Below are positions 9,858 to 9,903 of a DNA stretch of 11,200 bases, in pieces. The notes below the pieces were generated by a model. That model did not search any database. It saw nothing but the letters and a program-made list of their open reading frames with translations, and had not been told where the DNA came from. Source of the DNA: a virus (lineage: Duplodnaviria; Heunggongvirae; Uroviricota; Caudoviricetes); IMG/VR virus record IMGVR_UViG_2529292736_000009, positions 1-11,200 of that record, one strand, 5' to 3'. Made by a program: the position numbers and the translations under genes. Numbering within the stretch: the stretch's first letter is position 1; every line of letters starts with the position of its first letter.

Positions 9858-9903
9858 GTGACATACTGTGACGGAGAGTGACAACCAGTGACACACAGTG
9901 ACA
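9858..9903. repeat. Five direct repeats of GTGAC(A/G) phased at exactly 10 bp (9858, 9868, 9878, 9888, 9898)
   Basis: Seen directly: gGTGACAtactGTGACGgagaGTGACAaccaGTGACAcacaGTGACAaaaaag, starting 7 bp after the last island ORF. Confidence 0.6.

Follow-up and report, generated by a model that had tools for sequence, protein, structure and literature searches.

A phased array of GTGAC boxes at the right end of Escherichia coli PICIs, a candidate target in trans for helper-phage replication initiators

The phage satellite analysed here carries, near its right end, five direct GTGAC boxes repeated every 10 bp. They probably constitute a cis-acting platform for cooperative protein binding, of the iteron type, located at the right end of E. 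coli PICIs, in non-coding DNA of the accessory region. Box and phasing are identical to those of the iterons present in phage initiator genes, and the array lies outside the machinery that the island devotes to its integration, its packaging and its own replication. The explanation that we favour, with a probability of about 35%, is that these are orphan iterons, recognised in trans by the initiator of a helper phage, the putative binder, and serving either as a decoy or as an auxiliary origin. The proposed link between initiator and array rests on a motif of 5-6 bp and on its phasing.

The window, that is, the whole stretch of 11,200 bp that was analysed, is an E. coli-type PICI inserted between abgR and smrA, and all the island genes that it contains are transcribed rightwards (Table 1). 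A near-identical island, L129, is also found between abgR and smrA in strain CRE444.

Table 1. Features of the window (coordinates from its first nucleotide)
Feature	Position	Strand	Remarks
P4-type tyrosine integrase	1-1230	+	
(A/C)ACAACG x6, another 10-bp-phased array	1254-1312		directly upstream of alpA
AlpA#1	1429-1785	+	
DUF4222 protein	3918-4217	+	
RepA/AAA_25 primase-helicase	4214-5629	+	
Island's own iterons, 13-bp AAAAGTGGGGAGT x6	5629-5706		directly after the rep gene
SSB	6131-6553	+	
Lambda-E-type major capsid protein	6685-7812	+	
gpD-type decoration protein	7822-8163	+	
AlpA#2, second AlpA-like protein	8175-8558	+	
Lambda cosN, GGGCGGCGACCT	8615-8626		exact match with lambda-identical flanks; upstream of the Nu1-like gene
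Nu1-type small terminase	8751-9302	+	
94-aa ORF, phrog_1561	9567-9851	+	longest ORF from 9537; last island ORF
Five direct GTGAC(A/G) boxes at exact 10-bp spacing	9858-9903	+	units GTGACATACT, GTGACGGAGA, GTGACAACCA, GTGACACACA, GTGACA
A/T-rich tail, AAAAAAGACGGTATTTAAATA	9903-9923	+	21 bp; accompanies the array
Doubled GGTGTAGTTAAT motif, candidate integrase arm-type site	10395-10418	+	also in L129 attL
attR identity block, AATATCGTGA, putative right island end	10490-10499	+	placed by comparison with L129 attL (1317-1326)
smrA	10637-11200		chromosomal; last gene of the window

On the + strand the GTGAC boxes start at positions 9858, 9868, 9878, 9888 and 9898. The sequence-only reading had described them as five copies of GTGACA at exactly 10 bp, which holds for the pentamer GTGAC and has to be corrected for the hexamer, since the boxes at 9858, 9878, 9888 and 9898 are GTGACA and the one at 9868 is GTGACG. 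Outside the array GTGAC occurs at chance level (19 sites in the window against 16.6 expected). The pattern GTGAC-N5-GTGAC-N5-GTGAC, with up to one mismatch allowed, is unique to the array within the window and was produced by none of 200 dinucleotide-preserving shuffles; Tandem Repeats Finder delimits a period-10 array from 9858 to 9905. The array begins 7 bp past the stop codon of the last island ORF and the attR identity block follows 587 bp to its right, which confirms the location between that ORF and the right attachment site assigned to it from the sequence. From the A/T-rich tail, the portion AAAAAGACGG is retained in all the sequence contexts in which the array is found.

Conservation was examined with a query of 74 nt spanning the array, which retrieved it from 281 of 5426 complete E. 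coli genomes (about 5%); the array is thus kept at the right ends of related PICIs, as the sequence-only reading had asked to be verified. The instances inspected were 11 loci from complete genomes (10 from E. coli and one from Shigella flexneri) and about 38 IMG/VR contigs. In all of them the array occupies non-coding DNA at the right end of a PICI, preceded by a homologue of the small ORF except in the short contigs L336 and L357. Sixty-six arrays correspond to 13 sequence variants with 3, 4 or 5 units, the changes in length being of whole 10-bp units. In this sample, partly gathered with patterns containing GTGAC, the 25 columns of the boxes have one variant state (GCGAC, in one lineage) against 14 in the 25 columns of the spacers (binomial p about 0.001), and the subset anchored on the neighbouring ORF, free of that bias, gives the same picture. 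The 10-bp phase, the near-invariance of the boxes and a copy number that varies in units of 10 bp bear out the proposal that the copies share one face of the DNA, as in arrays that bind proteins cooperatively; judged by these sequence features, the array is genuine, in phase and maintained by selection. In another family of PICI arrays (L266, L268 and L270) there are four GTGAC boxes, 10-11 bp apart, with unrelated spacers.

About two thirds of the sister islands with sufficient downstream sequence are devoid of the array, and the sequences located 3′ of it in the window are found also without it (L283, L302). Three unrelated sequence contexts occur downstream of the array, with no conserved downstream gene. 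The same array is accompanied by different packaging modules (lambda-E-type, ClpP-capsid fusion and HK97-type cf-PICI with TerL, portal and HNH) and by differing Rep types with their own iterons (AAAAGTGGGGAGT x6 in the window, GGTAGA-type in L129), and the islands bearing it occupy at least eight chromosomal integration sites, among them phoQ, yifB, yejO/tRNA-Pro, clpS, yrbL, tqsA/mdtJ, abgR/smrA and a prophage portal gene. L449, a helper-embedded PICI, is without the array; L450 is a chromosomal island. Integrases of array-bearing loci share 23-100% identity and the AlpA#1 proteins 52-100%, AlpA#2 is encoded in only 3 of about 38 such loci, and among these about 38 loci no island protein was found to co-vary with the array. 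The array is an optional module, independent of the int, att, rep and packaging modules.

Further arrays were collected by a pattern scan for four GTGAC boxes at 10-bp spacing in public genomes and in viral contigs (IMG/VR), with at least 120 matches in each. Among the IMG/VR matches listed, most lie inside ORFs of 200-450 amino acids, on the opposite strand, at about 13% or at 40-50% of the length of the ORF, where the array encodes a repetitive ...SRNVT..H.. linker. Also among the matches listed, 22 of the 48 non-redundant array ORFs matched phrog_3729, ‘replication initiation protein’, and the other named families among the top matches of these 48 ORFs were all of the replication initiator, helicase-loader, primosomal protein or replisome-organiser type. 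Internal GTGAC boxes at a phase of 10-11 bp are, by these sequence matches, a signature of phage replisome-organiser (O-like) initiator genes. In phages and prophages of E. coli, GTGAC(A) boxes are present in the initiator genes of L366 and L130 and in TRITO_36 of Escherichia phage Tritos. The latter gene, placed after cI-cro-rha and annotated ‘Replication protein, N-terminal phage replisome organiser’, contains clusters of four and five GTCAC boxes, with an A-rich tract after the second cluster. Phage arrays consist of 4-6 boxes at 10-11 bp, and the island array shares with the phage mid-gene array the number of boxes (five) and the use of GTGACA with G/C variants at position 6. The ori of phage lambda lies within gene O, and the equivalent layout of these phage genes suggests that their arrays are origin iterons which, by analogy, would be bound by the product of the very gene that contains them. 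The box-bearing N-terminal (5′) part of the initiator gene is present in 2078 of the 5426 E. coli genomes (38%), so that a candidate binder is widely available.

The island array has in common with initiator iterons the presence of at least four phased repeats and the same box as an initiator group of the same host; whereas such iterons are located within or next to the cognate initiator gene, the island array is intergenic. Comparison of the ORFs of the window with 65 array-containing initiators (phmmer and hmmsearch, at E<=1 and E<=10) revealed no resemblance, and a cognate protein would therefore need to be supplied in trans. No sequence homology was detected by BLAST of the island array against the phage collection, and its matches to initiator genes extend over only 16 nt. 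The A/T-rich tract has opposite locations with respect to box orientation, since the tail of the island, of only about 20 bp, follows GTGAC and the tract of Tritos follows GTCAC. Among the matches listed, the IMG genome identifiers of array-bearing islands and of GTGAC-type prophages showed no overlap. A contig of Scandinavium hiltneri, L029 (13,974 bp, coverage label 1167), carries, immediately 3′ of a primase-like gene of 561 aa, GTGACC x5, then A9-GTATATAAAT and a region rich in A and T, and lastly GGTCAC boxes in inverted orientation; GTGACAAAAAAGACGGTATTTAAAT of the window and GTGACCAAAAAAAAAGTATATAAAT of L029, at the same offset, are equal at about 20 of 25 positions. One more GTGAC-phased array is found beside the tRNA/att junction of the Verrucomicrobia MAG L061. 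Being present in many unrelated contexts, the motif is exclusive neither to origins nor to one protein family.

In the model that we propose, a GTGAC-specific initiator (a replisome organiser, analogue of lambda O) provided by a resident or infecting lambdoid helper phage would bind the island array, with several molecules lined up along a single helical face, over the five boxes. From there, two courses are conceivable. The extra iterons of the amplified satellite could soak up the initiator of the helper, which would amount to helper interference by iteron titration. Alternatively, the initiator could open the adjacent A/T-rich tract, giving rise to an auxiliary origin driven by the helper, which an island provided with its own Pri-Rep and ori does not obviously need. 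That about two thirds of the sister islands do without the array was counted against a trans-acting initiator. The wider proposition, namely that the satellite carries an orphan copy of the origin iterons of its helper, either for interference through a DNA decoy or as a second, helper-dependent origin, is put forward as a tentative possibility, somewhat below even the favoured explanation in probability.

The position of the array had initially suggested a function in recombination, as integrase arm-type sites or as sites for an AlpA-like excisionase (RDF) shaping the excisive intasome at attR. Such a function would agree with the location between the last ORF and attR, with the phased direct repeats, which resemble the X1-X1.5-X2 sites of lambda Xis or the Cox boxes of P2, and with the GTGAC array directly beside the tRNA/att junction in the unrelated MAG L061. 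However, it is the doubled GGTGTAGTTAAT motif that is found in the two arms, spaced as published for the arm motifs of PICIs. Its L129 counterpart is found at 1455-1478, just before the start of int, and the distance from its centre to that of the core block is about 88 bp in the right arm and about 145 bp in the left one; TTGTTCC/CGTTGTT elements are also present on both att arms, in the window and in L129. In related PICIs a different doubled motif, TGTATTGC, located at 81 and 132 bp, was proposed as the integrase arm site, and the geometry of the doubled GGTGTAGTTAAT agrees with that of the doubled motif of HE-PICIs (PMC10111431). The search upstream of int, carried out on L129 (integrase 99.8% identical), covered 370 bp and gave no GTGAC array; near L129 attL the pentamer occurs only as two single copies, at 1235 and at 1282, both of them on the chromosomal side. 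Arm-type sites would be expected on both attP arms, at a fixed distance from the core and co-varying with the integrase, whereas the array is present on one side only, is separated from the arm motif by 320, 413, 492, 536 or 623 bp depending on the island, and is independent of the integrase type. It is accompanied by three classes of arm motif, GGTGTAGT, GTTATACG (L126, L128) and GTGTATTGC (the helper-embedded HE-PICI L346), and by integrases with identities down to 23-40%; that of L346 is 40% identical to the integrase of the window, and the two arrays are identical. The excisionase variant accounts for the five phased direct repeats on one helix face, but sites of that kind would lie within the att arm, no further than about 150 bp from the core, and in all the elements with the same recombination module. 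The array is separated from the core by 587 bp and lies beyond the arm motif by about 490 bp, and most of the sister islands that have the same doubled GGTGTAGT arm motif are without the array. The missing attL copy, the variable distance, the three arm-motif classes and the diversity of int make the array a poor fit for a role in the intasome, and both proposals, integrase and excisionase, were abandoned as highly improbable. The GTGAC array should accordingly carry no att-arm annotation, and the doubled GGTGTAGTTAAT is the arm-site candidate for the abgR/smrA-type and related PICIs.

The array could instead be an operator or activator platform for a protein of the island (AlpA#1, AlpA#2, the 94-aa product or another small protein) that would control transcription entering or leaving the variable accessory region, or would mark where the late operon ends, an alternative that we consider unlikely, with some weight left to it. 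Phased direct repeats suit winged-helix regulators, e.g. those of the AlpA/Xis family; the array is at the entry of the PICI cargo region, preceded by the 94-aa ORF with the two exceptions mentioned, and GTGACA equals the −35 consensus TTGACA at five of six positions. In L002-type islands the array is placed between the stop codon of the ORF and a terminator-like hairpin with a T8 run, and it is therefore probably transcribed with the late operon. Against a regulatory platform, no sigma-70 promoter is predicted at the array or just downstream of it, the gene downstream is not conserved across the three contexts, AlpA#2 is rare and AlpA#1 variable in the array-bearing loci, and the (A/C)ACAACG repeats upstream of alpA are a more natural site for AlpA autoregulation. 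The 94-aa ORF, conserved left neighbour of the array, is found in array-less islands as well, about two thirds of the islands that have it being without the array. It is PICI-specific, with 926 relatives, all unnamed; no homologue was found in the phage collection, and no Pfam family or PDB sequence match was obtained for the protein. Its AlphaFold model consists of three helices (pLDDT 71), for which Foldseek retrieved nothing below E=0.98 and no DNA-binding fold match, so that structure prediction and homology searches lend no positive support to this candidate binder of the array. A site for a host transcription factor, such as a response regulator of the OmpR/PhoB family that would couple island function to host physiology, has the slightest probability of the explanations weighed here. 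OmpR binds head-to-tail half-sites of 10 bp, as in ompF F1-F3, its half-site core GTTACA differs in one base from GTGACA, and the array displays the tandem 10-11-bp half-site geometry of the family; the lack of a predicted promoter nearby, the lack of a match to any known regulon motif, and the restriction of the array to PICIs, never at chromosomal promoters, among the E. coli matches examined speak against it.

Two other explanations concern the provenance of the array. It may be a half-origin, that is, the orphan iterons of a replicon whose Pri-Rep is of the satellite type and specific for GTGAC(C), either left as a relic of recombination with another satellite or mediating cross-talk, in the form of co-replication or incompatibility, with a satellite or plasmid in the same cell whose Rep binds GTGAC. 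The arrangement of GTGACC x5, A9-GTATATAAAT and inverted GGTCAC in L029 is the satellite ori layout described in PMC6092414, and the likeness of the island sequence to L029 at the same offset points in that direction, although it is largely an A-run and may be due to chance. The island, however, has a single iteron set from which the inverted partner is missing, GTGAC iterons occur at the own ori in none of 42 array-bearing E. coli PICI loci, and purifying selection on the boxes speaks against a pure relic, which leaves a half-origin with a small probability. Slightly less probable is a functionless, microsatellite-like repeat generated by slippage and hitch-hiking in a recombination-prone accessory region. 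The optional presence of the array, its variable copy number and the mosaic character of the region, with many other small repeats, would be compatible with that origin, but box positions are far better kept than spacers, the same box appears in the second, independent PICI array family, and the array is maintained in 5% of the E. coli genomes on many island backbones. Moreover, the unequal spacers between units exclude a simple tandem duplication.

Other candidate roles were considered and rejected. The island's own ori is provided by the six 13-bp iterons that follow the rep gene, and the array does not co-vary with the Rep type. In PICI origins, iteron sets flank an AT-rich region immediately 3′ of pri-rep (PMC6092414), whereas the array is a single set placed 4.2 kb away. 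As for a cosB, which would be found about 50-160 bp from cosN, on the side of the terminase gene, and would be specific for the terminase type, cosN is 1.2 kb away and the array coexists also with P27-type TerS, TerL and HNH. A second cos at 9950-10035 (minus strand) was considered, as this stretch is weakly similar to the flank of cos1 (CGGCGAT..GGTAGGC..GGGCGG); the two do not align convincingly, and the array is not oriented in the same way towards this stretch in all islands. A structured RNA was discarded, as an Rfam search of the whole window at E<=1 gave no match and a period of 10 nt is meaningless for single-stranded RNA. A coding origin was rejected because a 10-bp period is not codon-driven; the minus-strand ORFs that PGAP places over the array in L002 and L128 have mutually unrelated translations and are not conserved.

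In the papers covered, the mechanisms described for E. coli PICIs are protein-based and comprise AlpA induction, capture of the small terminase by Rpp, capsid genes and tail piracy. Induction of alpA by the helper is known to start the cycle, and the helper signal that switches on Gram-negative PICIs was stated to be unidentified (PMC6092414). Elements made of phased iteron-like repeats are well known; the conserved orphan array of PICIs is apparently undescribed, as no description of an orphan GTGAC array, or of its match to prophage initiator iterons, was found in the PICI literature and full texts covered, subscription journals being outside this coverage. The array is a conserved, optional cis element of 50 bp common to otherwise unrelated PICI backbones. 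If it binds the initiator, satellite DNA would be in direct molecular contact with the replication machinery of the helper, and a satellite could read or sabotage helper replication through this cis element, with no protein involved. This would be a new way of interfering with the helper or of replicating piggy-back, and it would offer a simple means to predict which phages interact with a given PICI.

Among known systems, origin iterons are found inside phage initiator genes, as in the lambda ori within gene O. Lambda has different iterons; the clusters of replisome-organiser genes such as TRITO_36 share with the island array the box itself (GTGAC or GTCAC, in most cases GTGACA), its direct repetition in 4-6 copies at 10-11-bp phasing and an A/T-rich neighbour; in contrast, the island array is intergenic and orphan, has no flanking homology, and its short A/T tract is on the other side. 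In iteron plasmids extra iterons cause titration and incompatibility, and cloned ori iterons inhibit lambda. Sequestration of an initiator by additional copies of its binding repeats, located on another replicon, would be the principle shared with the island, as suggested by sequence resemblance; to our knowledge iteron titration has not been described for phage satellites. Origins of the PICI/SaPI type (PMC6092414) also consist of iteron-like direct repeats in a PICI, and the GTGACC origin of L029 has a similar A-run/TATAAAT tail, whereas in the window the own origin is at 5629-5706 and the GTGAC boxes, of which there is one set, lie 4.2 kb from it. The doubled arm motif tgTGTATTGCantgTGTATTGCa in the attP of HE-PICIs (PMC10111431) is likewise formed by short direct repeats near the island end, with proposed binding of a recombination protein, a role taken here by GGTGTAGTTAAT x2 and not by a one-sided array that the core follows only after 587 bp. 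As repeats for protein binding, in a satellite that encodes a Nu1-like small terminase, the boxes recall the cosB of lambda (R3-I1-R2-R1) and the PICI cosB that Rpp-TerS recognises (PMC6739421). These differ from the array in that its distance to cosN (8615-8626) is of 1.2 kb and in that it is also present in HK97-type cf-PICIs with a different terminase. Finally, PMC6092414 cites the case of the P2 Cox boxes at the late promoter P_LL of P4. There, the Cox protein encoded by the helper P2 binds phased direct repeats in the satellite. The box is a different one, and the island array has no recognisable promoter and is not near alpA, but the concept would be the same, that of phased repeats in a satellite that are read by a protein of its helper.

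A second array of direct repeats phased at 10 bp lies upstream of the AlpA-like gene alpA#1. Its six copies of the consensus (A/C)ACAACG follow one another as CACAACG, AACAACG, CACCACG, AACAACG, AACAATC and AACAAAC, and the reverse complement of the repeat, CGTTGTT/TTGTTCC, is found again in both att arms. This array is a good candidate for sites of AlpA, Xis or Int and for autoregulation of alpA. The long plus-strand ORF that comes after alpA#1 is probably not a real gene; the minus-strand ORF overlapping it is the counterpart of an annotated YlcI/YnfO-family gene in L129, a near-identical island.

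Location of the features in the window and in related loci
Feature	Window	Related loci	Strand	Remark
Second 10-bp-phased direct-repeat array	1254-1312			Between int stop and alpA#1
396-aa ORF	1838-3028		+	Translation low-complexity, implausible
101-aa ORF	2545-2850		-	Overlaps 396-aa ORF
Six 13-bp repeats AAAAGTGGGGAGT	5629-5706			Perfect to near-perfect, 98% matches
Exact lambda cosN GGGCGGCGACCT	8615-8626			Within 8600-8655
Stretch ggatagaaatccc...gggaccgcccgcctacccttgttcacatcgccgcaggttcgaaaac	9945-10060	L266 1292-1440; L283		Right of GTGAC array
Chi site GCTGGTGG	10245-10252			Right-end non-coding region
CGTTGTT/TTGTTCC copies	~10350-10375	L129 ~1365-1440		In att arms
Doubled GGTGTAGTTAAT	10395-10418	L129 1455-1478		One per att arm
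Second context downstream of GTGAC array		L001 6046-6270; also L003, L050, L125, L127
Replisome-organiser genes		L012 3032-4090; L366 1336-2412; L451 2507-3577		Phage loci; two GTCAC clusters each

The run of 13-bp repeats starts where the primase-helicase gene ends, at its stop codon, and makes up the origin iterons of the island itself; at the equivalent position after the primase-helicase gene, L129 carries repeats of the GGTAGA(C/T)A type. In the phage replisome-organiser genes, one GTCAC cluster is located within the region coding for the N-terminal domain (...SRNVTRGHIDVTT...) and the other in the mid-gene linker, ahead of a KDTDKDTD repeat. Since both clusters are inside the coding region, the sequence of the replisome-organiser protein is partly dictated by what are presumed to be its own binding sites. 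The flanks of cosN in the window are identical to those of lambda (ACGGGGCGGCGACCTCGCGGGTTTTCGCTATTTATGA) and a Nu1-like small-terminase gene is placed 125 bp downstream; beyond cosN, at the expected position of cosB, the sequence is no longer lambda-like.

To the right of the GTGAC array, the stretch ggatagaaatccc...gggaccgcccgcctacccttgttcacatcgccgcaggttcgaaaac resembles a degenerate tRNA 3' half or an att remnant and, weakly, the cos1 flank. Its counterpart in the related loci L266, L268 and L270 is inverted and located across the small ORF, on the opposite side, and the small-terminase gene is in inverted orientation in L003, L266 and L270, which suggests that segments of this region have been inverted or shuffled. 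In the second context, as in L001, a terminator-like hairpin, ATGACGTggccaACGTCATTTTTT, comes after the array, and behind the hairpin are two overlapping small hydrophobic ORFs of 49 aa (minus strand) and 41 aa (plus strand); L266 carries a two-segment 77-aa hydrophobic ORF on the minus strand with its end within the L266 array. Cargo of the small membrane-peptide or type I toxin-like kind may be what these ORFs beside the arrays represent. Several Chi or Chi-like sites occur in the right-end non-coding region of the related PICIs L266, L267 and L271, set within a string of ~45-bp units, each composed of GGTAAC-nnn-TTGAT(A/T)TT and a small hairpin, for example cgcaaaattgcg, cctcaatttgagg or ggctcaaaattgagcc; none of these units is found in the window.

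In the att arms, the doubled GGTGTAGTTAAT lies ~88 and ~145 bp away from the core block AATATCGTGA (window 10490-10499). The sister islands L126 and L128 have two copies of GTTATACG in its place, and where the published doubled arm motif of helper-embedded PICIs is TGTATTGC (PMC10111431), its counterpart in the window is the doubled GGTGTAGTTAAT.
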